Assembly (NCBI GenBank): GCA_963727445.1
Contig: CAVSGI010000001.1
Location: forward strand, 396 to 64,395
Reading direction: 5' to 3'
Length of the DNA stretch: 64,000 nucleotides
Source: an uncultured delta proteobacterium
GTDB lineage: Bacteria; Myxococcota_A; Polyangia; Polyangiales; B10-G4
This document shows positions 4,298-50,526 of this stretch, one piece after another. The stretch's first letter is position 1, and each line of letters starts with the position of its first letter. The translations under genes and the position numbers were made by a program. The notes beneath the pieces were generated by a model. The model was not told the origin of the DNA and did not search any database. It was given only the letters and a program-made list of their open reading frames with translations.

Positions 4298-6157
4298 TCA
4301 GGGGCTCCGCCGGCGCCGCCGGCGCCGTGCCCAGAGGGCGATGAGACCGAGCATCAGCACGGCGAATCCGCCGCGGCGCGCCGGGCTGGGCGAGATCGCG
4401 CAGCCGCCCCCGTCGTCACCGCCGCCGCCGCTCAAGGCGGCCGGACGGACGCAGGCGTTGGTGACGCCGTCGCCGGTGCGGATGCACTCGAAGCCGGCCG
4501 AGCAGGCGTGGTCGGGCCCGCAGGTGGTCGTGCACACCGACCCGCCGGGCAGCGCGGCGCAGAGGTTGCTGATGCAGTCCTCGTTTGCCGTGCAGCTCTC
4601 CCCCACCAGCCCCGAATCGGGCGCGCAGATGCTGGCCGAGCCGACGTCCACGCAGCTGAAGCCAGCGCTGCACTCGCCCGTGCAGCTCGCGGTGCACCAG
4701 CTGGTGTCGCCGCGCACGGCGCAGGTGGGCGCTTCGGGGGCGCAGTCGGCGTTGGTGACGCAGCCGGCGCCGAGGCCGCCCCGCGCGCCACGCACGCAGA
4801 CCGATTCCCGGCAGTGGAAGACGTCGCCGCAATCGTCGTCGGAGCTGCAGCTCGCGCTGCAGTAGCTCGTCCCGAGCTCGGTGAAGCAGAGCCCCGAGCG
4901 ACAGTCGGCGTCGGCCTCGCAGGGCTCGCCGGCGCCGCGAAGGCCGGAGACGATCGCGGCGGCGACGCAACCGCCGCACGCGCCGGGAGCCGCCGCGCAG
5001 GCCTCCCCCGAGATGCACATCCCGGCGTCTCCCTCGCACGGCGTGAGGCAGCGCTGCCGCCCGTCCCCCGGATCGGTGCAGAAGAGGCTGGCGCATTCGC
5101 TGTCGGACGTGCAGTCGGCGCCGACGCCGAGGCGCATCCCACCCGGCGGGTCAGCGACGGGGAGGCACCGGCCGTCGCAGCCGCTGGTGTGTGCGCAGTA
5201 GTAGCCGACGGAGCAGCCGAGGCTCGGGGTGAGCGGCGAGCAAGGCTCGGTGCAGACCTGGCCGATGGGCGTGTCGTCGCACATGCCGCCGACGCATTCG
5301 TCACCGCTGCTGCACGCCTCGCCGAGCGCCAGGCAGCCCTCGTCCACCAGGTCGTCGCAATCGTTGTCGCTGCCGTCGCAGACCTCGTCTTCGTCCGCGG
5401 CGCAGGCGCCGCTCAGCTCCACGCCGTCGCGGATGAACGCCTGCAGGTCGGGGTTATCCCAACCGTTGTAGACGCCCTCCGCGGTGCCGCAGATCGGATT
5501 CCGACTGCCTCCGAGATCGAAGATGAAGGAGGCCACGCCGTACACGCGACCATCCGGGCCGATGAGAGGGCCGCCCGAGTCGCCTTCGCAGACGGTCGGC
5601 TCGACGAAGACCTTGTCGCCCAGCACCCGCTGGACGCGCTTCTGGGTGCTGTACTTGGTGCCAGCGTCGGAGGAAGGTGTCTGGCCGAAGCCGACGCCGG
5701 TGATGGTCTCGCCGATGAGGCCGCGCGGAGAGTCGAAGCTCACCTCCAGAGGCATGGGCGACGCCGGCGTGCTGAGGATCAGCATGCCGAGGTCGGTGTC
5801 GTCGTTCGATTCGATGTCCCAGGCGCCGGGCGCGGCCAGCACGTCGCTGACGCGATACTCGGCCGAGAAGCTCATGATGGAGGAGCCGGTGTAGACCGAG
5901 AACGCGCCTGGCACTTCCGTGGCGTCACCGCTGCCCCGCACGCAGTGCTTGGCGGTGAGCACCGCGCGCGGAGCGATGATGCTCCCGGTGCACAGGGCGC
6001 CTCGCCGTCCGTTGTAGACGAGGACGACGGCCGGGTGATTGTTGCGGTCGAGGGTCCCGTCGACGATCGCCGCCCGACCCTCGGAGACATCCTCGACGGG
6101 GGCCAGGCAGCCCGCCGCCGCGACCGCGACGGCGACCGTGAAGAGCACTGACTTCAT
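4298..6157 (-). CDS. Secreted trypsin-like serine protease (S1 family) with a Cys-rich repeat region and a MYXO-CTERM-like tail
   Basis: Signal peptide MKSVLFTVAVAVAAAGC. IVDG..LTAKHC (catalytic His) and CEGDSGGPL (catalytic Ser). CDGSDNDCDDLVDEGC is a MopE-like motif, followed by many CxxxxC repeats. The C-terminus GGGCAISPS..FAVLMLGLIALWARRRRRRR matches the MYXO-CTERM pattern. Confidence 0.9.
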   Translation of the reverse strand: MKSVLFTVAVAVAAAGCLAPVEDVSEGRAAIVDGTLDRNNHPAVVLVYNGRRGALCTGSIIAPRAVLTAKHCVRGSGDATEVPGAFSVYTGSSIMSFSAEYRVSDVLAAPGAWDIESNDDTDLGMLILSTPASPMPLEVSFDSPRGLIGETITGVGFGQTPSSDAGTKYSTQKRVQRVLGDKVFVEPTVCEGDSGGPLIGPDGRVYGVASFIFDLGGSRNPICGTAEGVYNGWDNPDLQAFIRDGVELSGACAADEDEVCDGSDNDCDDLVDEGCLALGEACSSGDECVGGMCDDTPIGQVCTEPCSPLTPSLGCSVGYYCAHTSGCDGRCLPVADPPGGMRLGVGADCTSDSECASLFCTDPGDGRQRCLTPCEGDAGMCISGEACAAAPGACGGCVAAAIVSGLRGAGEPCEADADCRSGLCFTELGTSYCSASCSSDDDCGDVFHCRESVCVRGARGGLGAGCVTNADCAPEAPTCAVRGDTSWCTASCTGECSAGFSCVDVGSASICAPDSGLVGESCTANEDCISNLCAALPGGSVCTTTCGPDHACSAGFECIRTGDGVTNACVRPAALSGGGGDDGGGCAISPSPARRGGFAVLMLGLIALWARRRRRRRSP

Positions 6158-6163
6158 CTGTTT

Positions 6164-8002
6164 CTATCTCCGTCGCCGCCGGAGGAGCACGACGCCCCCG
6201 CACAACATCGCCAGGGCGAAGAAGGGTGCGGTTGGCGAAGAGCCCACCGGCCGACCAACCGAGCACCCACCACCGTCCTCTCGTCCTGGTGGAGACGGTG
6301 CCACGCAGACCGCTCTCGCGCCATCCGACGTGCGGACGCACTCGAAGGCGCCCGCACAGGCCGTGTCAGGACCGCACAGACGGGTGCAGATCCCCGCGCC
6401 GGTGCACACGCCCGAGATGCAATCCTCGGGTACGGTGCAGGAGTCACCGACGACACCCCTGGCCGGAGCGCAGACGCTCGCGTCCCCGATGTCGACGCAG
6501 TCGAAGCCTTCGAGGCACGGGTCGGCGTCGGAGCAGAAGCTGGTGCACCAGGTGACTCCGTCGCGGGTCGCGCAGAAGGTGTCACCACGGCAATCGCCGT
6601 TCACGATGCACGAGTCGCCCACGCCGCCGCCAGGACCGCGGATGCACATCCCGTCACGACAGTGGAAGCGATCCGCGCTCCCGCAATCGGCGTCTTCGCC
6701 GCAGGCGCGCGTGCAATAGGAGAGGCCGGCCTCCGAGTTGCACATGCCCGACGCGCAGTCTTCCATGGCGCTGCAAGGCTCGCCGAGCCCGCGCGCGCCG
6801 ACCACGATGGCCGCGTCGACGCAGCTGCCGCAGGCGCCCGCCACCGCCGAACAGACCTCGCCCGCGTAGCAGGTTCCCTCGTCACCGCGGCACGGGGTGA
6901 GGCAGCGCTGCCGGCCGTCGCCGGGGTCGGCGCAGAAGAGCGAGATGCACTCGAGGTCGGTCGTGCAGTCGGAGCCGTCCGGCGCACCCATGGGGCGCGG
7001 GTCGGGGAGGGGTACGCAGAGCCCATCGCAGGAGCCGGAGCGTGCACAGTAGAGCCCGGTCGGGCAGCTGAGCTCGGGGCGCAGCGGATTGCAGCTCGCG
7101 CTGCAGAGCCGTCCCTCTGGCGTGTCGGCGCACATGGTGCCGATGCACTCGTCGTCGCCGGTGCAGGGGGAGCCGAGGGGCGAGCAGGTCTCGTCGACCT
7201 CGCCATTGCAGTCGTTGTCGTAGCCGTCGCAACGCTCGGCTCCGTCGTTGAGGCAGGAGCCGGAGTCGCCGATCACCATGTCGATCATGTCGAGGAAGAT
7301 GTCGAGGCGGTTCGCCGCGGCCAGGGAGCCGGCGCCGCAAGCGACTCTCTCGCCGAAGGAGGTGGTGCCGACGATCTCGTTGTTGGCCGCGAGCATGATC
7401 GGCCCCCCGCTGTCGCCCTCGCAGGTCATCGGTGTCGTGTAGAAGATGTCCCCGTCGACGAAGCGGATCCGCCCGCTGGCGCGGAGCTTCGTGCCCACCG
7501 TTCCAGCCGGGGTGGTGCCGTAGCCGATCGCGATGACGTCGTCGCCGATCGAGTCTCGGATGTCGCCGCGATGGACGACGAGCGGCTCGATGCTGGTGAT
7601 CCCCCGCTGCAGGGTGATCAGCGCGATGTCCCGTCCCACCAAGCCGGTGAGGCGTGCGTCGTAAGAGCCAGGGGTCGTGGTGACGTCCACCGCCGAGTAG
7701 GTGGCCGACAAGAGACTGGTCGAGTCGCCCACGCCGATGATGAAGGCGGAGGCCGGATCCGGAGCGGCCGCGTTTTCGCGCTGGACGCAGTGCTTGGCGG
7801 TGAGCACGACGCGCTCGGCGATGAGTGAGCCGGAGCACAATCCCGACGCCGCGGAGTTGTAGACGACCACCACGGCGGCGGTGCTGTCCGGGGAGCCGTC
7901 CACGATGGCCTCGGCGGCACCGCTGGCCTCGTCGAGGGAGGTGGGCGCCATACACCCCACCAGCAGAACGCCCAGGACGAAAACCAAGGAAGAAATCCGC
8001 AC
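6164..8002 (-). CDS. Secreted trypsin-like serine protease (S1), tandem paralog of 4298..6157, with a MYXO-CTERM-like tail
   Basis: LTAKHC, CEGDSGGPI, CDGYDNDCNGEVDETC, Cys-rich repeats and C-terminal GGGCSVGR..FFALAMLCGGVVLLRRRRR. The track ORF runs to 8107. I prefer the GTG at 8002, which has GGAGG 8 nt upstream and gives the signal peptide (M)RISSLVFVLGVLLVGC. Confidence 0.9.
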   Translation of the reverse strand: MRISSLVFVLGVLLVGCMAPTSLDEASGAAEAIVDGSPDSTAAVVVVYNSAASGLCSGSLIAERVVLTAKHCVQRENAAAPDPASAFIIGVGDSTSLLSATYSAVDVTTTPGSYDARLTGLVGRDIALITLQRGITSIEPLVVHRGDIRDSIGDDVIAIGYGTTPAGTVGTKLRASGRIRFVDGDIFYTTPMTCEGDSGGPIMLAANNEIVGTTSFGERVACGAGSLAAANRLDIFLDMIDMVIGDSGSCLNDGAERCDGYDNDCNGEVDETCSPLGSPCTGDDECIGTMCADTPEGRLCSASCNPLRPELSCPTGLYCARSGSCDGLCVPLPDPRPMGAPDGSDCTTDLECISLFCADPGDGRQRCLTPCRGDEGTCYAGEVCSAVAGACGSCVDAAIVVGARGLGEPCSAMEDCASGMCNSEAGLSYCTRACGEDADCGSADRFHCRDGMCIRGPGGGVGDSCIVNGDCRGDTFCATRDGVTWCTSFCSDADPCLEGFDCVDIGDASVCAPARGVVGDSCTVPEDCISGVCTGAGICTRLCGPDTACAGAFECVRTSDGARAVCVAPSPPGREDGGGCSVGRPVGSSPTAPFFALAMLCGGVVLLRRRRR

Positions 8003-14729: not shown

Positions 14730-14951
14730 TCAGTGCGCGACGCGGTCGCGACCCACCACCACGACCACCGGCGGACCCCGTGCGGCCGAGCTCCCAGCGC
14801 ATACGTTGGGACTGTCGCACATCCGGACGGTGCCGTTCGATGCGAGCGCTTCCTTCACCAGCGCGCCGCTGAGCACCTCGCGCTCGTAGGCGAAGAAGGC
14901 TTCGACGTCTTCGGCGTCGGGCGGGCTCAGGTCCCACCGCCCGGGTCCCAC
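14730..14951 (-). CDS. Hypothetical protein, probably the 3' part of a frame-broken gene
   Basis: GC3-rich frame. Coding-like sequence continues upstream across a frame break near 15066 (..AEAAVDVDALDAELVRLAGARSRLRLRVGRVAEALV / ..NVDTIEAWLARAERRTYKHLREEVEVAETL..). No family recognised. Confidence 0.3.
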   Translation of the reverse strand: MGPGRWDLSPPDAEDVEAFFAYEREVLSGALVKEALASNGTVRMCDSPNVCAGSSAARGPPVVVVVGRDRVAH

Positions 14952-15352
14952 CCGCGCCAGCGTCTCGGCGACCTCGACCTCCTCGCGCAGGTGCTTGTAC
15001 GTGCGTCGCTCCGCTCGCGCGAGCCACGCCTCGATGGTGTCGACGTTCGCGACCCGCGCTACCGCCCGCGGTGGCGAACCAGCGCCTCGGCGACGCGGCC
15101 GACCCGAAGGCGCAGCCGACTCCGCGCGCCCGCGAGGCGCACGAGCTCCGCGTCCAACGCGTCCACGTCGACGGCCGCTTCGGCGCTCTGTCTCAGAAGC
15201 CCCACGACGAAGTTCCCCCAGCTTGGAAAAGAGCTTGCCGCCTCAGGTCCAACCCATGCTCGCGAAGGCTGGTCTTTCCCGTCGTCGCTCTCGATATGTC
15301 ACCCCCGAGGGGTGACGCGCTGGTCGTTGTTCGCGATCACGTGACGTGGTCC

Positions 15353-19893: not shown

Positions 19894-21333
19894 ATGATCC
19901 TGCTCGTGGTGTCGGCATGCGTCCCAGATGGCCCCGGCCAGGGCTCGACCAGCGGACTTCACGACGACGGGGGCACGCGAGAAGCGCATGGACCCGGACT
20001 TCCCCATTGCATCAATGACGGACCGCTCGGTCGTCAGGCGATCCCTCGTCGCGTCGTCGTCAACCATGGGCGGGACCATGCCCGGTACGACCTCCCGCCT
20101 CGTGGCCCCTTGTCCATCGAGATGGTCGTCACCGGAATCATGGACCTGGACGTCGAGGGGCCCTCGGCGGATCACCCTGACGAGGTCGAAGCGACGTTGA
20201 ACATCGTCGGTCACGGACGCGCGGTCCTCGGCGCGGGCTCCGACGGCACGCTCACGTATGCCACCTGGCGCGGTCGCGCTCTCGACTTGAGTCGACCGAG
20301 CACCCATTACGCCGACGGAACGCCGATCGATGCGCCCCGCGCGGTCACGCTCGCATCGGACCTCCAGGAACGATTCGATTCGCTCGGACAGGAGCTGGCC
20401 GCGAGTCTTCGGGGATGCCTCGGCGACCCGCCCGAGGATCCGCCTTCGTGCCCCACCAACGGACAAGCAGCACAAGTCGCGGGGTTCGACGTCGGGGGAG
20501 CTTCGTGCGCCGGTTGTTGGGGCGCTGCCCTCACTGAGCTCACTCACTGCTTGTTGGGTGTCGCCGAAGGCTGTGCCGCCTGTGCAGGTGCCGGGCTCTT
20601 TGCCGGCCTGTGTGAGGTGATCTGTCTGGTGGTGGGCTTCCTCGCCTGCATCGCCTTGTACATCTTCTCGATCATTGAATGCCAGAACAGCGAGGCCTGC
20701 TGCCCTGAACGGTGCGATGACAACATGGACTTCATCAACCCCACCCCCCACTGCTGCCATCGGGACTCGACGTGCGTCGATCCCACTCGCGGCCTTTGCT
20801 GCGATCACAGCTGCGGCGGCGGCACCTGCTGCCCGGTGGGCAATACCTGTGCGAGCGACCCGAATCTAGCCGGAAGCCTCGCCTGCGATTCCGCGACGGT
20901 GTGCTGTCCCACAGCGAATGCGTGTGGGGACAGCTGCTGCGCTGAAGCGAACATGTGCGCCGACCAGCTCAACGGACCGTGTTGCGAGGGAACTCGGGGC
21001 AACCCCGGCGGTCCCTGCCCCGGCTCTCCGGGCGACGACTCCACCCCCGCCAACTGCTGCAACCCTGACCAAAGCTGCGCCGACTTCGGCGTGTGCTGTA
21101 AGGCGGGTACGCAGTGTGAGATGCGGGGAACCTGCTGTCCTGACGGCTACCAGTGTGCGACCCCAGATGGGGGATGCTGCCCCGCTGGGACGCACTTCTG
21201 TCCCGACTGCTTCCCGAACGGAGCGTGCTTCGAAGGCGACTGCCCGACATCGGAAACTGGTGAGCCGGTGTTCTGCCTCGAGCGAGGAGGCGTCGAACCG
21301 GTGCCCTCCATGCCTCCGGCGGACGGCCCATGA
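19894..21333 (+). CDS. Cys-rich lipoprotein 'A' (479 aa): N-terminal globular part, a Cys-studded hydrophobic segment, and a C-terminal CC-repeat (granulin-like spacing) region
   Basis: MILLVVSAC lipobox. Hydrophobic stretch LFAGLCEVICLVVGFLACIALYIFSII. C-terminal repeats CCPVGNTC, CCPTANAC, CCAEANMC, CCNPDQSC, CCKAGTQC, CCPDGYQC, CCPAGTHFC. The stop overlaps the next start (ATGA at 21330). Confidence 0.7.
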   Translation: MILLVVSACVPDGPGQGSTSGLHDDGGTREAHGPGLPHCINDGPLGRQAIPRRVVVNHGRDHARYDLPPRGPLSIEMVVTGIMDLDVEGPSADHPDEVEATLNIVGHGRAVLGAGSDGTLTYATWRGRALDLSRPSTHYADGTPIDAPRAVTLASDLQERFDSLGQELAASLRGCLGDPPEDPPSCPTNGQAAQVAGFDVGGASCAGCWGAALTELTHCLLGVAEGCAACAGAGLFAGLCEVICLVVGFLACIALYIFSIIECQNSEACCPERCDDNMDFINPTPHCCHRDSTCVDPTRGLCCDHSCGGGTCCPVGNTCASDPNLAGSLACDSATVCCPTANACGDSCCAEANMCADQLNGPCCEGTRGNPGGPCPGSPGDDSTPANCCNPDQSCADFGVCCKAGTQCEMRGTCCPDGYQCATPDGGCCPAGTHFCPDCFPNGACFEGDCPTSETGEPVFCLERGGVEPVPSMPPADGP

Positions 21334-22013
21334 AAACGCGATGGCTCTGTCTTCATATCATCGCCGCCTTGGCTACGGGTTGTGGCGGAGATGACACGGG
21401 TCCGTTTGATTCCGCCGTTGACAGCGTCGCTGCCGATGACATGTCGGTGGGCGATGCGCTTCGGGATGGCACCGCTGGGGATGCCGGTTCCGATGGTAGT
21501 GGCGTGACCTGCGAAATCGCTCCCACCGTCGACACCTCGTGGTTCGGCGGTTCACTGCTCTACTGTGGATTCGGGACCGAAGCGTGCGGAGCGACCGCGA
21601 CCCCGACCGGGCCGTGCCTCTGCACGCAGGAATGGTCGTCCCCGTCGACGGGCTCGCGCTGCGGTGGCGCCGTCGTCTCTCCGGATGGCTCCCACACGTA
21701 TCTCGCGTCATGTGACCCCCAAAGCGGTACTTGCCGATGCTCGTTCGACGGTGACGAATGCTACTGCCGAGCGAAGCCCGCCCGCCCATGCAGCGACCTC
21801 TGCCAATCGGGTTCGAGGGGATGCCTCTGCGGCACGCTTCCGGATGGCACTCCCTCCAACCGATGCATAGACATGTGCCAAGACGTGCCCGGCCTGGTGG
21901 AGTGCTGCGCAGATCCCGATGCCTCAGGAGCCTGTTTCTGTGATGGCGAACCCCGCTCCGACATCTGCGAGCGCAGCCTGAACTGCTGCTGGACAGGAGG
22001 GAACGAAATCTGA
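21330..22013 (+). CDS. Cys-rich lipoprotein 'B1' (227 aa)
   Basis: MKTRWLCLHIIAALATGC lipobox. About 24 Cys in the mature part (CLCTQEWS, CRCSFDGDECYC, CLCG, CCADPD, CFCDG, NCCWTGGN). Paralog of 23083..23736. Confidence 0.7.
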   Translation: MKTRWLCLHIIAALATGCGGDDTGPFDSAVDSVAADDMSVGDALRDGTAGDAGSDGSGVTCEIAPTVDTSWFGGSLLYCGFGTEACGATATPTGPCLCTQEWSSPSTGSRCGGAVVSPDGSHTYLASCDPQSGTCRCSFDGDECYCRAKPARPCSDLCQSGSRGCLCGTLPDGTPSNRCIDMCQDVPGLVECCADPDASGACFCDGEPRSDICERSLNCCWTGGNEI

Positions 22014-22160: not shown

Positions 22161-23100
22161 TGAGACAGCTTCCATCAGGTAAATAGTGAGGGTGGAGGAG
22201 ATGACGTCAGCATGGATCAACACGTTCACGGATCGGTACAGGGCTCGCCAGGGCCGCGTCTAGGTCACGGCGCTTCATCGACACCTCGCCGGCGCAGATC
22301 TGGGCGACGATGGTCGACGAGGGCGTGTACGTCGCGTCGATGCGCACGATGTACCGTGTCCTGGGCGGCCAGGGCGAAGTCCGGGAGCGTCGCGACCAAC
22401 GCCGTCATCCTCCAGCGATGACGCCAGACGGTCCGAACCAAGCCTGGAGCTGGGACATCACGAAGCTCCGGGGACTACGCCCGTACGAGGCCTTCTACCT
22501 GTACGTGATCCTCGACATCTTCAGTCGCTTCGTCGTGGCGTGGATGCTCGCGAAGCACGAGCGGGCGACGTACGCGACGAATCTCATCGAGCGAGCCTGC
22601 GAGGCGGAGGGGATCGAACCGGGGCAGCTGGTCCTTCACTCCGATCGCGGCTCGCCGATGACCGCGAAGCCCGCGGTCGCGCTCATGGGTCAGCTCGGCA
22701 TCGACCCGAGCTACAGTCGGCCGCGAACGCCGAACGACAACCCGTACAGTGAGTCGCACTTCAAGACCTTGAAGTACCGGCCCGAGTACCCGGGCAGATT
22801 CGGCTCGTACGAGGACGCTCACGCGTACTGCTGCGACCTGTTCCCCTGGTACAACCACGAGCATCGGCACTCCGCGCTCTGCTGGCTCACGCCCGCTGCC
22901 GTCCATCACGGCCGCGCCGATGCCATCCTCGACGCGCGGCAGCGCACCATGCTCGAGGCCTACGATGCGCATCCTGAGCGCTTCGTCCACGGCCCCCCGC
23001 GGGTCCGCCGCCTCCCCGAAGAGGTGTGGATCAACCAGCCGACATCGGCGATTCAGATCGAAGGATCAGCTCACTGAAATTCATGAAACGAGCTGTCTCA
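22161..23100 (+). mobile_element. IS3-family insertion sequence remnant (about 0.94 kb, orfA and the 5' part of orfB deleted)
   Basis: Ends TGAGACAGCT (22161-22170) and AGCTGTCTCA (23091-23100) form a perfect 10-bp terminal inverted repeat (TG...CA). They extend imperfectly to about 30 bp. The element encloses an rve/DDE orfB fragment. No target-site duplication is seen. Confidence 0.75.
22205..23077 (+). pseudogene. IS3-family transposase OrfB (integrase core), 5'-truncated
   Basis: ..RFIDTSPAQIWATMVDEGVYVASMRTMYRVLGGQGEVRERRDQRRHP..PNQAWSWDITKL..FYLYVILDIFSRFVVAWM..LHSDRGSPMTA..SYSRPRTPNDNPYSESHFKTLKY..YNHEHRHSAL. DDE residues are present. There is no OrfA/HTH and no plausible native start. 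Confidence 0.85.
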
Positions 23101-43639: not shown

Positions 43640-43745
43640 ACCCGACCGATAGGGGCCGAGTTCCCCGAAAAACCGGGGTCGTCGCTGAAAGATCGCCCCC
43701 GCGAGCGTGAATTTCACGCTCAGGTGGGCCGCGGGGTCACGACCG

Positions 43746-44979
43746 CTACCAGATCTCCATCGGGCCCAGCTCCTCGCCGGACAGAACGAAGAACGCTTCT
43801 CCGTACGTGCTGAGGTGCTCGAGGGCGAGGTCGAGGTCCTCGCGGCTGTGGCCGCGGGTGACGTTGAGGCGGAGGCGCTCTTCGCCTTCCTTCACGCCGG
43901 GATAGGTGATGGGAACCATCATCACGCCGTTCTCGAGGAGCGCCACGTGCATGAAGAGCGCCTTGCGCTCGTCGCGGCACATGACCGGCATGATGTGGGT
44001 GTCGCTGTCGCCGAGGTCGAAGCCGATCTCCGTCAGGCGGCCGCGCATGTAGTCGCGCTTTTCGTGCAGCTCGGCCACCAGCGCCCTCACCGTCGTTTTC
44101 GAGCATCGTCAGGATGGTCGAGGCGGCGGCGACGATCGGCACCGGGAGGCTCGCGCTGAAGAGGAAGGAGCGCGCGTAATGCTTCACGTGCTCGACGATG
44201 TCGGTCTGCCCGACGAGGATCCCGCCGATGCCGCCGAATGTCTTGGAGAAGGTGCTGACGATCAGCGGGACGCGACCCTCGAGGCCGTACTTCTCCACGA
44301 TGCCCTTGCCGCTCTTGCCGAGGGTGCCCGTGCCGTGGGCGTCGTCGAGGATCAAGAACGCGTCGTACTTTTCGCAGAGCTCGACGATCTCGACGAGCTT
44401 CGCCTCGTCGCCGTCGAGGGAGTAGATGCCCTCGATGAGCACGATGGCGTTTTCGCGCTCCTTGTTCTTGAGGATGCGCTCGAGGGACCGGACGCTGTTG
44501 TGATTGAAGAAGCGGACCTCGGGCTGGCGGGTCGGCGTGCCGGCGGCGAGGAAGGTCCCGTCGAGGATGCAGGCGTGACTGAGGTTGTCGAGGATGAGCG
44601 TGGTGTTCTTGTCGGCGAGGCTCATGATCGTCCCCACCATCGCCTGATAGCCGGTGGTGAAGAGCAGGCACTTCTCGAAGCCGAACCAGTCGGCCAGGCG
44701 CTCTTCGAGCTCGACGTGCGCGGTGGTGGTCGCCTGCACCCGCGAGGAGCTGAGGCCGACGGCGAAGCGGTCGACGGCCTCCTTCGCCGCCTCCTTCACC
44801 TTGGGATGATTGGTGAGGCCGAGGTAGTCGTTCGAGCTGAAGTTGACGATGGGCTTTCCGTCGATGGTCGTGTGCAGCCCGCCCGACTCGAAGGGACGGA
44901 AGTACGGATAGACCTGCTTGTCGCGAGCCTCGCGAATGCGCGTCAGCTCTTTCCTCGCCTTTTCTTCCAGCCAGCTCAT
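43746..44979 (-). pseudogene. Alpha-oxoamine synthase family enzyme (8-amino-7-oxononanoate synthase / serine palmitoyltransferase-like), with one frame break near 44095
   Basis: MSWLEEKARKEL..PYFRPFES..FSSNDYLGLTNHPKVKEAA..GLSSSRVQATT..DDAHGTGTLGKSGKG..STFSKTFGGIGG (PLP Lys)..TILTMLEND / VRALVAELHEKRDYMRGRL..HIMPVMC..GVMMVPITYPGV..RLRLNVTRGHSRED. The two halves sit in different frames (track ORFs 43720..45015 and 43746..44090). The break could be an assembly error. Confidence 0.85.
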
Positions 44980-45036
44980 GGGGCGCTGTCTAATCCTCCC
45001 CCCCACTCCGAGCAACCCTCCCGCGAACCGCGGCGG

Positions 45037-46209
45037 CTAGGCAGCGCGCTTCATCACCACGGCGGAGACGTTTCCGTAGAGGCCGACGGTGGTCACGACC
45101 ACGGTCTGCACCTCCTCCGGCGCTTTTCCTGCGATCAGCGGCCCCACCGGCGCTCCCTCGAACCAGGCCATCGCCGTGGCCATCCCGATGGCGCCCGCGC
45201 CGCCGAAGGTCTCGCCGAAGATCGCCTTGGGCGTAGCGATGGCGACCTCGTGCCCGAGGGCGGCGGTGATCCCGGTGCGCTCTTCGTGATCGATCGCCTC
45301 GAGGCCACAGGCCGCCGATGCCACCGCGTCGACGTCGGCGGCGGTGAGCCCCGCATCGGCGAGCGCCGCCTCGACGGCGCGCTGCACCGGATCAGCCGAG
45401 GCGTGGACCAGCACGGCCGGCGACAGGGGTGGCTCGAAGGCGGTGCCGTAGCCGGCGAGGTAAGCGCGGATCGGCGCGCCACGCGCCCGGGCGGCCACCG
45501 GCCGCTCGACGAAGAGGTACGCGGCGCCTTCTCCGAAGGACAGTCCCGGCGCGTCCTCGGACGCGGCCACGGCGCCCAACTTGCGATAGGCGAGGTAGAG
45601 CGGAGAGGAGAGCGGCTCGCCGCCGCCGACCAGGAACGCGTCGGCGCGCCCGTGGGTCAGGTGCGTCTCGCAGGAGAGCACCGTGTCGAGGGCGCCGCAG
45701 TTTCCGTCGACGACGGTGACGTTCGGCGCGCGCAGGTCCTCCCAGATGCTCACGTAGCCCGCGGCCGCGTTGATGACCGTGTTCGGGAAGCGCGACGGGT
45801 TGATGTAGCGAGGGTCTTCGAGCTCCGCGACGAGGTTCAGCTCGGTGATGGCGTCGAGGGATCCATAGGCCGTCGACGAGCAGATCCCGACGCGGCTCGG
45901 ACCGTAGGCGACGAACTCGCCGTCGCGCTTCACACCCGCATCCTCGAGGGCGTGCTTGCCTGCGACGATGAGGAACTTCGTCAGTCGATCGAAGTTCCGC
46001 AGGCCCTTCGGACCGAGATAGTCCTTGGCCTCGAAGCCCCAGACCTCGGCGGCCCGTGGATTTTCGACCTTGTCGTCGAAGGCGGTGTGCTCGCCCGCGA
46101 ACGCCTTCTTCTTCGCCGCCTCGGGATCGGCGAGGGCCGCGATCAACGCCTCGCGTCCGATGGCGATCGGGCTGACCACGCCGAGCCCGGTGATCGCCAG
46201 CGGCCTCAT
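45037..46209 (-). CDS. Beta-ketoacyl synthase-like protein lacking the active-site Cys (chain-length-factor / KS0 type)
   Basis: Intact 390-aa thiolase-fold ORF (MRPLAITGLGVVSPIAIG.., FPNTVINAAAGYVSI, GETFGGAGA). At the nucleophile position it reads ICSSTAYGS instead of ..ACA/C... The start overlaps the upstream KS stop (46206-46209). Confidence 0.8.
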   Translation of the reverse strand: MRPLAITGLGVVSPIAIGREALIAALADPEAAKKKAFAGEHTAFDDKVENPRAAEVWGFEAKDYLGPKGLRNFDRLTKFLIVAGKHALEDAGVKRDGEFVAYGPSRVGICSSTAYGSLDAITELNLVAELEDPRYINPSRFPNTVINAAAGYVSIWEDLRAPNVTVVDGNCGALDTVLSCETHLTHGRADAFLVGGGEPLSSPLYLAYRKLGAVAASEDAPGLSFGEGAAYLFVERPVAARARGAPIRAYLAGYGTAFEPPLSPAVLVHASADPVQRAVEAALADAGLTAADVDAVASAACGLEAIDHEERTGITAALGHEVAIATPKAIFGETFGGAGAIGMATAMAWFEGAPVGPLIAGKAPEEVQTVVVTTVGLYGNVSAVVMKRAA

Positions 46210-47452
46210 CGCGGAAGCCCCACGTCATCGGGGAGCAGCCCGGGCTTCGCCAGGCACAGGACGGCGTCGTAGCCGCCGAAGGCGAGCGCGTTGTTGAGGA
46301 CGACCTTCACCTCGCCCCCGTCGCGCGCTTCGTTGGCCACCACGTCCACGTCGCACTCGGGATCCTGGTTCTCCAGGTTGATGGTGGGCGGCAGGATGCC
46401 GGTCTCGAGGGTCTTGATGCAGGAGACCGCTTCGATGGCGCTCGCGGCGCCCATGCAGTGGCCGAAGACGCTCTTGTTCGACGAGACCGGGACGCGCCGG
46501 CCCTCGAAGATCTGCGTTGATCACCTTCGCTTCGACCCTGTCGTTGGCGACGGTGCCGGTGCCGTGCGCGTTGATGAAGGAGACCTCGGCTGGCGTGATG
46601 CTGCTCGAGAGGATCGCGCGTCGCATCGCCTCGACGCTGCCCGGACCCGTCCGGATGCGGCCGGGTGATGTGATGCGCATCGCAGGCGAGGCCGTAGCCG
46701 CCGACCTCGGCCAGCGGCTCGCCGCCCCGCCGCGCCGCGAGGTGCGCCTCGGACTCGAGGACCACGATCCCCGCACCCTCGCCGAGGAGCAGACCCTTGC
46801 GATCGTCGTCGAAGGGCTGCACCGGTCCGGCGTCATCGCGCCCAGGCGGACGAAGCCCGCGAACTCGAGCTTCTCGAGGATCTCGGTCGCGCCGGTGATC
46901 GCCACGTCGGCGCGACCCGGCGCGGATCTGGTCGGCCGCGAAACCGATGGCGTAGTTCCCCGCCGCGCACGCCGCGGGGAGCGTCTGCACCATGCCGCGG
47001 GTGTCGAAGGCGCGCGCGATGTGGATGGGCAAGAGCGTCGAGCCGTAGCGCTGCAGCTTCATCGCGTGGACGGCGTCCTCGCCTTCGTGGATCCAGGCAG
47101 CCTCGAGCTCGCCGAGGATGTTGGCCTCGCCCATGGTCGTGCCGAGGATCACGGCGGTGCGCGCATTGGCGAGGTGCTTTGGGGCGAGGCCCGAGCTCTG
47201 CACCGCCTCGCGGGCCGCGGCGAGGGCGAAAGCCGAGCACCGCCCGGCGTGGCGCGCTTCGGCCGCGTTGAGGTAGTCGCGGGGACGGAACTGCTTCACC
47301 TCACACGCCATGTGGCGGTCCATCGAGGCGGTGTCGAAGGCCTGCACCTCCGCTGCCCCGCTCCGGCCATCGACGAGGGACTCCCAGAAGGCGGAGATGC
47401 CGATTCCGACGGGGCTGACCACGCCCATCCCTGTCACGAACACACGAGCCAC
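46206..47452 (-). pseudogene. Beta-ketoacyl-ACP synthase (FabF/KAS II-like, catalytic Cys-His-His present), with at least 4 frame breaks
   Basis: MARVFVTGMGVVSPVGIG..TLPAACAAGNYAIGFAADQIRAG / RADVAITGATEILEKLEFAGFVRLGAMTPDRC / PFDDDRKGLLLGEGAGIVVLES..GLACDAHHITRPHPDGSG / SVEAMRRAI..SFINAHGTGTVANDRVEAKVIN / IFEGRRVPVSSNKSVFGHCMGAASAIEAV..ALAFGGYDAVLCL. The pieces are spread over track ORFs 46307..47452, 46225..46905 and 46206..46454. Confidence 0.85.
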
Positions 47453-47577
47453 GGGCGCGCTGCTTTTAGCGTGTATCGGCTCGCCCGTCCACGGAGCCTC
47501 GCCGCGAAAAACCGGCCGGACGGACGGCTTTTGGCACGGCTTGACCGGTCCCGCGCACGCCCGTATCTACCGCCGCC

Positions 47578-49258
47578 ATGGAGCCCCGTTTCGACACGCT
47601 CGTGCAGGCGCTCGCGGAGATCCCGCGACGCGGAAATCGTGGATTCACGCTTCGTCGGCACCGACCGCCAGGAGCGCTACTTCACCTACGAAGAGATGTG
47701 GCAGGAGGCGAATCGCCGTGCGGCGTTCCTGAGGGCGATGGGCCTCGAGAAGGGCGATCGCCTCGCGCTGGTCGTCCCCGAGGGCCACGAGTTCGTGCTG
47801 AGCTTCTTCGGGGCGGTGGTCGCCGGGATCGTGCCGGTGCCGATGTTCCCGCGGGCGACCTTCAAGGGCGTCGACGGCTACGTCGACATCCTCGCCCACA
47901 TCGTCGAGGCCTCGGGCGCGAAGGTGATGCTCTCGATGGAGACGCTGCGGCCGATCATCGACAAGGTGAAGGAGCGGGACGTCGAGCTCCGGCAGGTCGC
48001 GATGTGCGAAACCGCATTCGAAGGCGAGACGCCGGCCTTCGAGCGTCCCGAGGTCACGCCCGAGGACCTGTGCTTCCTCCAGTTCACCTCGGGCAGCACC
48101 AGCCGGCCCAAGGGCGTGATGGTCACTCACGAGAACCTGGTGGCCAACGCCAGCTGCTTCCTCGGCCCCGCCCCCGGCCTCGACCGCAACGACGACGACG
48201 TCGGCGTGAGCTGGCTGCCCCTCTTCCACGACATGGGGCTCATCGGCTTCATCCTCGGCACCATCGTCTGCGACATCCCGGTGGTGATCATCCCGACCGC
48301 GCAGTTCGCGCGCGCGCCGCGGCTGTGGCTCGAGACGATCCACAAGCACCGCGGCACCATCACCTACGCGCCGAACTTCGCTTACGAGCTCGTCGCCAAG
48401 CGCGTGAGGGACAAGGACCTCGAGAGCCTGGATCTCTCGTGCATCCGCGTCGCGGGTTGCGGCGCCGAGCCCATCCGCGCCAAGAGCCTCGCTGCCTTCG
48501 CCGAGCGCTTGGCGCCCGCGGGATTCGACGGCGACAAGGCGTTCCTGCCGAGCTACGGCATGGCGGAGCGACCTGGCGATCACCTTTCACCCGCTGCGGC
48601 ACGCCGATCGTCGTCGATCGGGTCGACCCCGCCGCGATGAAGGCGGGCAAGGCGGTGCCGAGCGAGCGCCGGATGCGCTCGAGCTGGTCTCCTGCGGCCG
48701 CCCCTTCGAAGGACACGAGCTGGCGATCACCGACGACGACGGCGAGACGCTCGCCGAGCGGCGCGTCGGCGAGATCGTCGATCCGCGGCCCGAGCGTGAC
48801 GACGGGCTACTTCCAGAACCCCGAAGCGACCGCCGCGGCGTTCCGCGAGGGCGACTGGCTTCACACCGGCGACCTCGGCTATCGCGCCGAAGGCGACGCT
48901 CTACATCTGCGGCCGCATCAAGGACTTCATCATCATCAACGGCGCCAACCACTACCCGCAGGACATCGAGTGGATGGTGGGCGAGCTTCCGAGGGCGTGC
49001 GGCGCGGCAACGTGGTCGCCTTCAGCGTCATGAACGGACGGGATGGAGGAGCTGGTGCTCATGGCCGAGGGGAACCGGGCGGACGCCGAAGAGCTCCGCA
49101 AGACGATCGCCCGGACGGTGGCCGAGGGCTTCGGCCTGAAGGCCGCGGACGTGGCCATCGTCCCGGTCGGCACCCTGCCCAAGACCTCCAGCGGCAAGGC
49201 CCAGCGCCGAAAGGCCAAGCAGATGTACGAGGATGGAGCGATGCCCGCCCATCCGTGA
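47578..49258 (+). pseudogene. Fatty acyl-AMP ligase (FAAL, FadD32-like adenylating enzyme), with at least 8 frame breaks
   Basis: MEPRFDTLVQALAE / ..RYFTYEEMWQEANRRAAFLRAMGLEKGDRLALV..LCFLQFTSGSTSRPKGVMVTHENLVAN..WLPLFHDMGLIG..TITYAPNFAYEL..AGCGAEPI..PSYGMAE / ATLAITFHPL / GTPIVVDRVD.. / LVSCGRPFEGHELAITDDDG.. / RGPSVTTGYFQNPEATAAAF..WLHTGDLGY / ICGRIKDFIIINGANHYPQDIE / NVVAFSV / ..VPVGTLPKTSSGKAQRRKAK. Confidence 0.85.
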
Positions 49259-49368
49259 GGACGGCTGGCGTCGCGAGGCGCCATCCACTATGGTTCGCGC
49301 GACTCAAATCCGGCGATCGAGGCTATCCGGCCCTCCGATCCCCACGAGTTCTGGAGACTGTTGACCCG

Positions 49369-49610
49369 ATGGAACGGTCCGAGCTTCTGACGATTTTCCG
49401 CAGATGGCGACCGAGATCGCCGAGAAGGACTTCAGCGATGTGACCGAGGACGGTGACATCGCGGAGCTGGGCCTCGATTCGCTCAGATGCTGGAGCTGGT
49501 GGGCGCGATGGAGCGCGAGCTCGAGGTGTCGATGCCCGACGAGCAGCTCGTCGGCATCCAGACCGTGCGGCAGCTCCTGGAGTCTGGTCGAGAAGCGACA
49601 GAAGGCCTAG
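49369..49610 (+). pseudogene. Acyl carrier protein 1 (3 frame breaks)
   Basis: Stitched: MERSELLTIFR-MATEIAEKDFSDVTEDGDIAELGLDSL-MLELVGAMERELEVSMPDEQLVGIQTVRQLLE-LVEKRQKA*. LGLDSL is the phosphopantetheine Ser motif. Two of the breaks are a missing base at c-AGATG. Confidence 0.7.
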
Positions 49611-49710
49611 GGGGCCGAGGGGGACGAGCAGTCCCCAGAACCAAGGGGCCCGAGCGAGCAGTCCCCAGAGGCAGGGGCCGGGACACGGTCCTGCGAAGAA
49701 GGAGCAGTCG

Positions 49711-49955
49711 ATGTCCGACGAAGCATCTGAAGAAGAAGCTCCGAGAGATCATCGCCGAGGTGTGCGAGGTCGACGAGATCCCGGACGACGACCCCGTTCG
49801 AGGATCTGGGCATCGACTCGATGATGGCCATCGAGATCGTCGCGGAGGTCGAGCGCACCTACAAGCTCTCGATCCCGGAAGAGGAGCTCAAGGATCTGAC
49901 GAACTTCACCGCGGTGTTCGAGATGGTTCGCAGCAAGCTCGACGCGGCCGCTTAG
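49711..49955 (+). pseudogene. Acyl carrier protein 2 (2 frame breaks)
   Basis: AAGGAG RBS 8 nt upstream. Stitched: MSDEA-LKKKLREIIAEVCEVDEIPDDDP-FEDLGIDSMMAIEIVAEVERTYKLSIPEEELKDLTNFTAVFEMVRSKLDAAA*. LGIDSM is the phosphopantetheine Ser motif. Confidence 0.75.
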
Positions 49956-50097
49956 TAAGGCCGCGAAGCGGCCGGCACGAGTGGGAGCGGCGCGGAGCGG
50001 ACGAGCCGGCGGAGCGGCGCGTGGCGCCGCGTCGGCGGATCGGGAGCGCAGCGTCGCGGAGCCGGGATTGCGTCCCCGTCCCCCGCTCTCCCAGACA

Positions 50098-50526
50098 ATG
50101 ACTCACACACCCACCGACTTCGTTCATCGCCTGCCGTTTCGCGTCGGCTACATCGACACCGATCGCGCCGCGGTGGTGCATCATTCCGTCTACCTGCGCT
50201 GGCTCGAGCACGGGCGGATCGAGTTCTTCCGCGATCGCGGCCTCGAGTACAAAGCGCTCGAGCTCGACGACAGCCTGGGGCTGCCCGTCGTCGAATGCCG
50301 CATGAAGTACAAGCGCCCCGCGCGCTTCGACGATCAGATCGTCATCGAGACGCGCATCGGCCGCCTGAGCCGCGCCACCGTCCGCTTCGACAGCGAGGTG
50401 AAGCGCGACGATGGAGAGCTGTTGTTGCAGGCGGAGATCACCCTCGCCTGCGTACGGCTGCCCGAAGGCAGGCTCCGCAGCCTGCCCGAGCGCGTGAAGC
50501 TGGTCTGCGGAGCGACCGAGGGCTAG
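50098..50526 (+). CDS. 4HBT/YbgC-type hotdog-fold acyl-(CoA/ACP) thioesterase
   Basis: The in-frame ATG at 50098 gives MTHTPTDFVHRLPFRVGYIDTDRAAVVHHSVYLRWLEHGRIEFFRDRGLEYKALE..GLPVVECRMKYKRPARFDD. This is the YbgC/4HBT catalytic Asp context (YIDTD). 142 aa, intact. Confidence 0.85.
   Translation: MTHTPTDFVHRLPFRVGYIDTDRAAVVHHSVYLRWLEHGRIEFFRDRGLEYKALELDDSLGLPVVECRMKYKRPARFDDQIVIETRIGRLSRATVRFDSEVKRDDGELLLQAEITLACVRLPEGRLRSLPERVKLVCGATEG

Follow-up and report, generated by a model that had tools for sequence, protein, structure and literature searches.

A divergent carrier-protein, ketosynthase and α-oxoamine synthase cassette conserved among Polyangiales myxobacteria

The stretch of DNA described here, a 64-kb window (64,000 nucleotides) from an uncultured member of the Polyangiales, carries a cassette of seven genes at positions 43746-50526. 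The genes are transcribed divergently from one short intergenic region: a fatty acyl-AMP ligase (FAAL), two small acyl carrier proteins (ACPa and ACPb) and a hotdog thioesterase (TE) on one side, and a FabF-like ketosynthase (KS), a ketosynthase homologue without catalytic triad (KS0) and an α-oxoamine synthase (AONS) on the other. The cassette, with its identifiable genes and catalytic residues, is kept in synteny across the order, evolves under strong purifying selection and has a conserved operator between its two promoters. We estimate at about 50% the probability that it is a self-contained route to an α-aminoketone on which all intermediates would be tethered to carrier proteins, a reading that rests on sequence comparison. 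The product would most likely be a specialised amino-lipid or a signal-type molecule. All coordinates refer to the window unless another locus is named. An intact relative locus (L001), with 83% nucleotide identity to the window and 87% identity in KS0, served as reference.

As to which substrates are used, how many rounds of extension take place, what becomes of the β-keto group and what is finally made, we infer the following scheme. The FAAL would adenylate a free carboxylic acid, suspected to be of short to medium chain length, and load it onto the dedicated ACP. In the predicted KS/KS0 heterodimer the acyl group would then be bound to the Cys of KS and undergo one condensation with malonyl-ACP; since the cassette contains no acyltransferase (AT), malonyl would be loaded by the housekeeping FabD. 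The AONS would join a small amino acid, which may be Ser, Ala or Gly, to the acyl-ACP or the 3-oxoacyl-ACP in a decarboxylative condensation that releases the product. The TE may be an optional proofreader that clears mis-acylated ACP, and both operons would be governed from the single divergent promoter via a palindromic operator and a putative regulator. If the β-keto group were kept, the product would be a RedL-like 1,3-dicarbonyl amine able to cyclise; prior action of the housekeeping enzymes FabG/Z/I would instead lead to a sphingoid-like product, either an aminoketone or an amino-alcohol.

RedL of undecylprodiginine biosynthesis has the domain order A-ACP-KS-AT-ACP-OAS (A, adenylation; OAS, oxoamine synthase), and PigJ and PigH are related to it. 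The preliminary description of the cassette had compared it with this prodiginine logic, and the parts do match those of RedL one for one. By this common logic, a carrier would be primed with a fatty acid by an adenylating enzyme and the chain lengthened by a KS with a single malonyl unit; the β-ketoacyl chain, now on a second carrier, would be condensed with an amino acid and set free by an α-oxoamine synthase. The two ACPs of the cassette mirror the two ACP domains of RedL. The kinship with prodiginine enzymes amounts at present to an analogy; for the KS, the PigJ model NF053555 gave a partial match of 86 bits against a cutoff of 900. The cassette differs from RedL in that its parts are separate proteins, its KS has a dead partner (KS0), AT is missing, and no prodiginine genes lie nearby.

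A second comparison is offered by the trio of an acyl-ACP synthetase (AasR), a dedicated ACP (AcpR) and serine palmitoyltransferase (Spt) established in Rhodobacteria (PMC9386255). There, too, a stand-alone adenylating enzyme loads a dedicated ACP that feeds an α-oxoamine synthase (PMC9386255), and a minority lineage of the cassette's AONS clade keeps just ACP and AONS. In contrast to this trio, the cassette has an AONS that fails three Spt models, a ligase of FAAL type rather than AasR type, a KS/KS0 pair inserted between loading and condensation, and no ceramide genes. Searches of the literature on 9S5H, on oxoamine synthase with chain length factor, on FAAL with α-oxoamine synthase and KS, and on pimeloyl with acyl-AMP ligase found no published description of the cassette. 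All its enzyme families and their chemistry are known; for the combination, the order-wide architecture and the unnamed AONS clade, we found no description in this literature.

The ketosynthase pair, the ligase and the oxoamine synthase

Domains were assigned with Pfam and NCBIfam profiles, the NCBIfam scores being obtained in part on the L001 orthologues, and both kinds of profile back every domain call of the cassette. Catalytic positions of the ketosynthases were fixed in a multiple alignment that included FabF of V. cholerae and the two chains of an anammox ketosynthase heterodimer. KS has the intact Cys-His-His triad attributed to it in the preliminary description (Cys in AACAAGN, His in NAHGTG and His in FGHCMG), and all three residues are present in the pieces of the gene found in the window. 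In KS0 the corresponding positions are occupied by Asn170 (VDG-N-CGA), which aligns with the Cys of FabF, by Ala/Ser, and by Glu333. Asn170 and Glu333 are invariant across 13 members of the KS0 family; Cys171 (the Asn170-Cys171 dipeptide is encoded at about 45697-45702) and Cys110 are likewise invariant. The absence of a catalytic triad from KS0 had thus been recognised correctly, but the motif then taken for the nucleophile site, ICSSTAYGS (KS0 residues 108-117), lies 55 residues upstream of that site, whose true position is Asn170. The motif is a family signature common to the anammox protein.

Both ketosynthases scored below the cutoffs of the models of the housekeeping enzymes. On the fabF model TIGR03150 (cutoff 493.75) KS reached 379 bits and KS0 143-155 bits, and on the FabB model PRK07967 (cutoff 630) the scores were 204 and 50-57 bits. 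Ordinary fatty acid synthesis (FAS) or a duplicated FabF was rejected as an explanation, both proteins being under the FabF and FabB cutoffs and KS0 having no triad. For the preliminary description, a grouping of the pair with ordinary FabF/FabB would have spoken against its reading; the relatives of the pair are instead heterodimers of the KS/chain-length factor (CLF) type. In the PDB, the best match of the L001 KS was chain B of 9S5H (amxFabF2; 368 bits, 45% identity) and that of KS0 was chain C of the same entry (amxFabFmut; 134 bits, 32% identity). Other matches of the pair include the ishigamide Iga11/12 (6KXD) and the actinorhodin KS/CLF (1TQY). By sequence, KS/KS0 groups with the KS/CLF-like heterodimers, and the presence of Asn170 in KS0 and of Val in amxFabFmut, instead of Gln, argues for a CLF-like partner rather than a classical KSβ.

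Entry 9S5H was traced to Brocadiales and to a 2026 preprint; the heterodimer is also represented by PDB entry 9S5I. According to that work, amxFabF2 and amxFabFmut are each inactive alone and form a KS/CLF-like heterodimer when together; the heterodimer decarboxylates malonyl-ACP, forms acetoacetyl-ACP, and prefers C8 and C6 over C16 probes (bioRxiv 10.64898/2026.05.19.726425). The same study assigns to amxFabFmut the tuning of chain length, with Phe135 and Val139 lining the tunnel, and it is for this anammox relative only that activity restricted to the pair has been demonstrated (bioRxiv 10.64898/2026.05.19.726425). The two tunnel residues correspond to F141 and V145 of KS0, both invariant. 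The long-chain product suggested in the preliminary description is therefore doubtful, as the closest characterised relative of the pair prefers C6-C8 and both tunnel residues are invariant here.

The cassette shares with the anammox pair an active KS and a partner lacking the triad, in which Glu replaces the second His and which carries the STxYGS and FPNTV motifs, the tunnel residues included. The dead subunit of the anammox pair differs in that Val or Thr takes the place of the KS0 Asn, to which the invariant Cys is next. The surroundings also differ: the anammox genes stand beside amxACP, a FabZ-like dehydratase, radical-SAM enzymes and oxidoreductases, in the ladderane cluster, with neither AONS nor FAAL. 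Only the KS pair is common to the two systems, which belong to different phyla. With the KS/CLF pairs of type II polyketide synthases (1TQY, 6KXD) the cassette shares an adjacent, translationally coupled pair of an active KS and an inactive homologue, and stand-alone ACPs. In the classical CLF, however, the position of the Cys is taken by Gln and not by Asn, and the cassette has no cyclases, aromatases or ketoreductase (KR) and probably performs one extension only.

The ligase of L001 scored 524 bits on PRK09192 'fatty acyl-AMP ligase', under the cutoff of 600; this was still its best family. Its top PDB matches were all FAALs, namely 3PBK of E. coli (331 bits), the FAAL domains 7R7E-G, 3KXW of Legionella, and FadD32. 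Judged by these closest characterised relatives, the enzyme would be of FAAL type. When it was aligned with 3PBK, only one-residue gaps were seen through the segment after YGMAE, where the FAAL-specific insertion that blocks CoA ligation would lie. An ACP follows the FAAL in 43/58 loci. ACPa is optional, and relatives with a single ACP keep the ACPb type. The TE of L001, to which the window TE is 91% identical, scored 88.9 bits on the YbgC/FadM model TIGR00051 (cutoff 68.7). As it occurs in only 22 of 58 loci (38%), and was once replaced by a FabK-like enoyl reductase, it was regarded as accessory; we treat it as a proofreader because the AONS reaction would itself release the product.

The AONS is the pyridoxal phosphate (PLP) enzyme that the preliminary description had recognised by the motif STFSKTFG: the PLP lysine in this motif aligned with that of the Spt structure 3A2B, as did the His/Asp motifs DDAHG and SHA/DHA, among whose residues is the stacking His. 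With E-values between 1e-97 and 1e-54 across all subfamily models, it is assigned to the α-oxoamine synthase superfamily of fold-type I PLP enzymes. Its place within the superfamily was examined by model cutoffs and by classification of the nearest clusters. Every score fell under its cutoff (in brackets): bioF (TIGR00858) 325.6 bits (426.45), Kbl 300 (460), 5-aminolevulinate synthase (ALAS) 220 (339) and CqsA-type PRK07179 184 (428); on the Spt models the CFB type gave 320 (640) and the other two types, β and α, 280 (500) and 223 (670). The best PDB matches were the Spt of Sphingobacterium (3A2B/8GUH), then Thermus BioF/Kbl, and Kbl. An exhaustive search of 1.8 billion representatives delimited a tight clade at 46-74% identity, beyond which identity fell to about 40-44%, the background level. 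Among the six outgroup clusters closest to the clade, five scored best as CFB-type Spt and one as true BioF; the nearest true BioF cluster (P0260) belongs to Saganbacteria/Margulisbacteria lineages. Relatives within the clade (P0242, P0244 and P0245) were under the BioF cutoff as well, at 312-340 bits. By these comparisons the AONS is a clade of its own, under every curated cutoff for BioF, Spt, Kbl, ALAS and CqsA.

The contexts of AONS relatives were informative. P0244 (L087:2991-5225; 55% identity) is a natural fusion of AONS with a short-chain dehydrogenase/reductase (SDR)/ketoreductase domain and stands beside a major facilitator superfamily (MFS) transporter and a tetratricopeptide-repeat (TPR) protein. 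P0245 (L088:4709-12596; 50% identity) lies in a mini-FAS cluster with a KS, three SDRs, an ACP, an Sfp-type phosphopantetheinyl transferase, a FabD-like AT and a FabA/Z-like dehydratase. In a third lineage (L169, L151 and L167) only ACP and AONS are found, without KS. The contexts of P0242 and P0250 consisted of a short contig and unrelated neighbours. The fusion, the mini-FAS cluster and the ACP-AONS lineage suggest an enzyme working on dedicated acyl-ACPs, reduction of the ketone in at least one relative, and chemistry like that of Spt rather than BioF. Together with the Spt-like outgroups, they are the reason why Spt-like, non-biotin chemistry is favoured for the AONS.

In the ACP-AONS lineage (L169:5863-9615 and L151:130-3930) the ACP gene faces a convergent operon with genes for phosphoglucomutase-like, NAD-dependent epimerase/dehydratase-family and hexapeptide-repeat acyltransferase proteins. 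This operon could modify an aminolipid, or could consist of unrelated sugar-nucleotide genes.

Conservation of the cassette and its divergent promoter

A pattern scan of GTDB species representatives found a KS0 relative in 141 species, and the 80 best of the 141 were all Polyangiales/Sandaracinaceae-type metagenome-assembled genomes (MAGs). Database clusters with at least 59% identity to KS0 numbered more than 120; those with a name were Myxococcota or Sandaracinaceae. The parts of the cassette were counted around KS0, each over the GTDB loci that had enough flank for that part. KS was directly upstream of KS0 in 63/74 loci and AONS downstream in 51/57, FAAL was near in 46/65, and at least one ACP was present in 43/58 and two ACPs in 25/58. 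An independent metagenome sample anchored on AONS had KS0 and KS in 23/28 loci each and FAAL in 21/28. Neither reductive enzymes nor acyltransferases are encoded recurrently in the cassette core across these loci. Accessory neighbours (SDR, an aminotransferase like aspartate aminotransferase (AspAT), glutathione S-transferase, kinases and TPR proteins) each occurred in at most about 15% of loci; the second aminotransferase near some cassettes is AspAT-like and not BioA, and the nearby SDR scored best as an unrelated glutathionyl-butene dehydrogenase type.

The recurrence of the cassette across species is far beyond chance. The preliminary description had regarded the genes as one functional unit; this is supported by the intact syntenic clusters of related genomes and by relatives in at least 141 species, and the unit is neither an ordinary FAS nor a canonical bio operon. 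Selection is tight: dN/dS was 0.09-0.16 for all seven genes (0.088 for the frame-corrected AONS) against 0.23-0.36 for three flanking syntenic genes. KS0 is held as tightly as the active KS.

In a number of loci (L025, L027, L034, L036, L038, L041, L042, L053, L060 and L065) KS0 was found with no KS, FAAL or ACP within up to 10 kb, usually with AONS downstream. From this clade standing alone, KS0-AONS appears to be the most persistent gene pair. A DUF6159 protein is encoded upstream in six loci of the clade, L065 among them. In L004/L035 (8690-9916), from a MAG labelled Gemmatimonadales, a gene with an HXXSHH domain is inserted between an inverted KS and KS0-AONS, and no FAAL is near; the neighbours and the KS0 identity of 63% indicate that this contig may be mis-binned Myxococcota.

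The intergenic regions between FAAL and KS of 50 loci (L001-L085) were compared. A palindrome consisting of an A-rich segment, GGCC-N4-GGCC and a T-rich segment was found in 39/50 regions, sometimes duplicated, and lies between both promoters. In the window its core is GGCCGGACGGAC at 47514-47525, with A/T-rich flanks (47504-47535) and one degenerate half. When 1.36 Mb of loci plus the window were scanned with a position weight matrix (PWM), high-scoring copies appeared only at the promoters of the cassette, which argues that the cassette has a putative operator of its own.

On the FAAL side, relatives have a TTGACA-type −35 and a TATCTA-type −10 element with conserved spacing, the latter ending 8 nt before the ATG (47578 in the window), so that the mRNA of the FAAL operon is probably leaderless. 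The KS-facing promoter of the relatives is of the TTGC-N17-TATAG type. A generic σ70 scan of the region returned no sites, though the TTGACA/TATCTA-type elements of the relatives are seen by comparison. No riboswitch or known RNA was found in the region with Rfam, and among the relatives no conserved regulator gene adjoins the cassette.

Gene map and reading frames of the window copy

The features of the cassette and its promoter region are listed in Table 1. Gene content, order, strands and boundaries, as well as the 125-nt divergent gap and the two ACP motifs, agreed with the preliminary description when checked with Pfam and frame translations. So did the absence of KR, dehydratase (DH), enoyl reductase (ER) and AT genes, none of which was found by the Pfam scan in the cassette or in the window flanks. 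The stop of KS and the start of KS0 overlap by 4 nt (46206-46209), an arrangement common in KS/CLF pairs.

Table 1. Positions of the cassette genes and promoter elements in the window
Feature	Position	Strand	Basis
AONS (α-oxoamine synthase, ~410 aa)	43746-44979	minus	Pfam Aminotran_1_2; tblastn with L001 AONS
KS0 (chain-length-factor-like ketosynthase homologue, 390 aa, intact ORF)	45037-46209	minus	Pfam ketoacyl-synt N and C
KS (FabF-like, Cys-His-His)	46206-47452	minus	three ORF pieces with KS N- and C-terminal Pfam domains
Divergent promoter region, 125 nt	47453-47577		gap between KS and FAAL
KS-side −10-like CTTTTA (reverse complement TAAAAG)	near 47463-47468	minus	
FAAL-side −35 TTGACC	47541-47546	plus	comparison with relatives
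FAAL-side −10 TATCTA	47564-47569	plus	comparison with relatives
FAAL-type ligase, ~557 aa	47578-49258	plus	Pfam AMP-binding and AMP-dom_DIP2-like C-terminal domain
ACPa, ~80 aa, motif LGLDSL	49369-49610	plus	frame translations; tblastn with L001 ACPa; NCBIfam ACP models
ACPb, ~80 aa, motif LGIDSM	49712-49955	plus	frame translations; tblastn
Hotdog thioesterase (TE), YbgC/FadM family, intact	50098-50526	plus	Pfam 4HBT and 4HBT_2 (4HBT open reading frame 49981-50526)

All the genes named in the preliminary description are present, yet only KS0 and TE are intact open reading frames (ORFs) in the window, a circumstance that the description did not mention. Alignment to L001 revealed about 18 frame-breaking indels in five of the seven genes. 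The AONS has one +1 frameshift near 44082-44090: its Aminotran_1_2 matches were split (43720-45015 and 43746-44090, minus strand), and in tblastn the L001 AONS matched with residues 1-299 at 44979-44083 and 299-410 at 44084-43749, at 92-94% identity. KS has four frameshifts (about 46515, 46642, 46822 and 46920), FAAL about eight indels (about 47650, 48568, 48596, 48665, 48780, 48898, 48993 and 49037), ACPa three frameshifts and ACPb two. The indels are mostly one-nucleotide insertions of C or G that do not lie in homopolymers and do not copy the adjacent base, and they are grouped in three clusters (permutation P about 0.004-0.008). Elsewhere in the window ORFs reach 1013 aa, and no more than one or two frame jumps are suspected.

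After frame correction, none of the seven genes has an in-frame stop. This and the dN/dS of 0.09-0.16 argue against an old pseudogene cluster as the principal interpretation. The clustering of the indels makes a local consensus or assembly error, or a very recent loss, likelier than old decay, and the window copy is probably frame-broken through local assembly error.

Relative to L001 the window has two insertions, one of 87 nt between ACPa and ACPb (about 49611-49696), which contains the direct repeat TCTGGGGACTGCTCG twice, and one of 133 nt between ACPb and TE (about 49957-50089). The GC content of the window is about 69%, and a GC content at third codon positions (GC3) of about 0.9 marks real genes. 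The GC3-rich coding signal seems to switch frames at about 1-750 and about 14730-15300 (minus strand), where further frameshifts outside the cassette are possible. The neighbours of the cassette in the window are unrelated to it (LysR, TauE, lipoproteins without known function, a Ser/Thr kinase and a zinc-ribbon protein). An ORF at 22310-23077 (plus strand), resembling an IS3/rve-type transposase (integrase core), lies beside a stretch of lower GC3 and points to the remnant of a mobile element, some 20 kb upstream of the cassette. At 19894-21333 and 21330-22013 (plus strand), within a 2.7-kb stretch that the GC3 model called non-coding, two neighbouring genes encode proteins that are rich in cysteine and appear to be secreted.

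Possible roles of the cassette

Several observations weigh against a self-contained route to an α-aminoketone. The anammox heterodimer did not elongate hexanoyl-ACP in vitro, a result that according to the authors may be due to limits of the assay (bioRxiv 10.64898/2026.05.19.726425); elongation of a FAAL-loaded primer by KS/KS0 is thus an assumption. The tight constraint on KS0 and its invariant Asn170-Cys171 dipeptide make the role of a mere spacer insufficient. The parts of the cassette are separable: some lineages have KS0-AONS with no KS, FAAL or ACP nearby, and one clade has FAAL-ACP-KS-KS0 without AONS within 6-10 kb. BioF is marginally the best model of the AONS (325.6 bits against 320.1 for the CFB-type Spt), and a true BioB adjoins the cassette in a minority of loci.

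The last two points lead to biotin. The AONS could be the BioF of the lineage, with FAAL, ACP and KS/KS0 producing pimeloyl-ACP as an early biotin segment; for example, glutarate on ACP would be extended once with malonyl-ACP to 3-oxopimeloyl-ACP and reduced by FabG/Z/I, in a BioZ-like manner. We consider this unlikely. The BioB about 3 kb from the cassette of L005 is bona fide (397 bits on TIGR00433, cutoff 225), and by tblastn BioB was located at the ACP/TE end, in tail-to-tail orientation, in nine GTDB loci of at least three KS0 clades (L005, L012 at 5366-6340, L020, L024, L047, L050, L063, L068 and L071). Among the GTDB loci with at least 8 kb of flank, BioB was present in 8/49 (16%), and in 8/36 of those that carry FAAL; it was also found near the KS-less ACP-AONS locus L169. 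However, it adjoined only one of 20 AONS-anchored metagenome loci. It is convergent with the cassette and not co-transcribed, and it is always accompanied by the AspAT-like aminotransferase and a protein of about 355 aa, which looks like inherited synteny. In the PWM scan of 1.36 Mb no operator common to BioB and the cassette was found, and neither the cassette promoters nor the region upstream of BioB contained a BirA-type box. BioA, BioD, BioC, BioH and BioW were found in no locus.

By E-value bioF is the top NCBIfam family of the AONS, and the order-wide conservation with tight purifying selection would suit a vitamin pathway, as would the C6-C8 preference of the nearest KS/KS0 relative, with its tunnel residues invariant as F141 and V145, and the FabK-like ER that stands in for TE in one relative. 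The missing KR, DH and ER have a parallel in the BioZ and BioC/BioH routes, which borrow FAS II (PMC7645780, PMC12704756). On the other hand, the AONS is under the BioF cutoff (325.6 against 426.45 bits), its outgroups are mostly Spt-like, and the fusion of a close relative with an SDR fits reduction of the ketone and not a BioA-type transamination. For BioF, no requirement for a dedicated ACP is known. The characterised FAALs all activate fatty acids and not dicarboxylates (PMC12820801). The preliminary description had stated that an AONS within bona fide BioF, with biotin genes nearby in relatives, would speak against its reading; we found that the AONS is not a bona fide BioF and that a true BioB does lie beside the cassette in 8/49 loci.

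The pimelate routes known so far are BioC/BioH, BioI/BioW, BioZ and BioE (PMC7645780, PMC12704756), and none of them resembles the cassette. The BioZ/BioF route has in common with it a dedicated condensing enzyme that would add one malonyl to a short primer, borrowed FAS II and an AONS-family enzyme (PMC7645780), and BioB is adjacent in some cassette loci. BioZ, however, is a β-ketoacyl-ACP synthase III homologue that uses glutaryl-CoA, with no FAAL, dedicated ACP or KS0 (PMC7645780), whereas the cassette has an AONS under the BioF cutoff and neither BioA nor BioD nearby. A fifth pimeloyl route is conceivable, in which FAAL would load a short dicarboxylate onto the dedicated ACP, the KS/CLF-like pair would lengthen it to 3-oxopimeloyl-ACP without the methyl-ester disguise of BioC/BioH, and a divergent BioF would make 7-keto-8-aminopelargonic acid (KAPA). 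Such a route would account for BioB recurring as a neighbour, for the lack of reductive genes, for the short-chain tunnel residues of KS0 and for the vitamin-like conservation across Polyangiales/Sandaracinaceae; we nevertheless consider it rather unlikely.

Quite unlikely is a genuine Spt, by which the cassette would supply the long-chain base of myxobacterial sphingolipids. FAAL and ACP would then act like AasR and AcpR, and KS/KS0, aided by reductases of the housekeeping kind, would fix the acyl chain at an unusual, long length. This would agree with the Sphingobacterium Spt (3A2B/8GUH) being the best PDB match of the AONS and with the nearest outgroups scoring best as CFB/δ-type Spt, and δ-proteobacteria do make sphingolipids and encode distant AcpR homologues (PMC9386255). 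An SDR, moreover, lies within a few kb of AONS in about nine loci and is fused to it in P0244. The nearby SDR, however, scores best as the glutathionyl-butene dehydrogenase type, and all three Spt models are missed by a wide margin (320/640, 280/500 and 223/670 bits). Genes for ceramide synthase or of the CerR type do not recur, either in the window or among the clustered flanks of 80 loci, in line with the preliminary description, which had remarked on the lack of adjacent ceramide genes. The tunnel residues of KS/KS0 match a partner that prefers short chains, and a dedicated KS pair is part of no known Spt system.

A small diffusible aminoketone or hydroxyketone signal would result if KS/KS0 left the FAAL primer unextended and only decarboxylated malonyl-ACP or made acetoacetyl-ACP, the AONS substrate then being a very short acyl-ACP, or if the AONS acted like the autoinducer synthases CqsA/LqsA directly on a FAAL-loaded acyl-ACP. 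The anammox heterodimer (amxFabFhet) shows malonyl-ACP decarboxylation and acetoacetyl-ACP formation only, although the authors allow that this in vitro result may reflect assay limits (bioRxiv 10.64898/2026.05.19.726425). The dedicated operator suggests ligand-responsive control, an MFS exporter stands beside the AONS-SDR relative, and the parts of the cassette are separable across lineages. We regard such a signal as very unlikely, since the CqsA-type model gave 184/428 bits, well under the BioF, Spt and Kbl scores, and no CqsS/LqsS-type sensor kinase recurs nearby.

In a whole order of myxobacteria, most of them uncultured, the cassette is fixed, and purifying selection on it is tight. Should its product be a specialised amino-lipid or signal, this would be a new product class for Sandaracinaceae, and RedL-type chemistry would have in the cassette a model that is dissociated and genetically tractable; if the cassette instead feeds biotin synthesis, it would represent a new early biotin pathway. 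Either way it offers a second testable biological context, outside anammox bacteria, for the poorly understood dead-KS partner proteins, with dozens of intact templates for heterologous expression.

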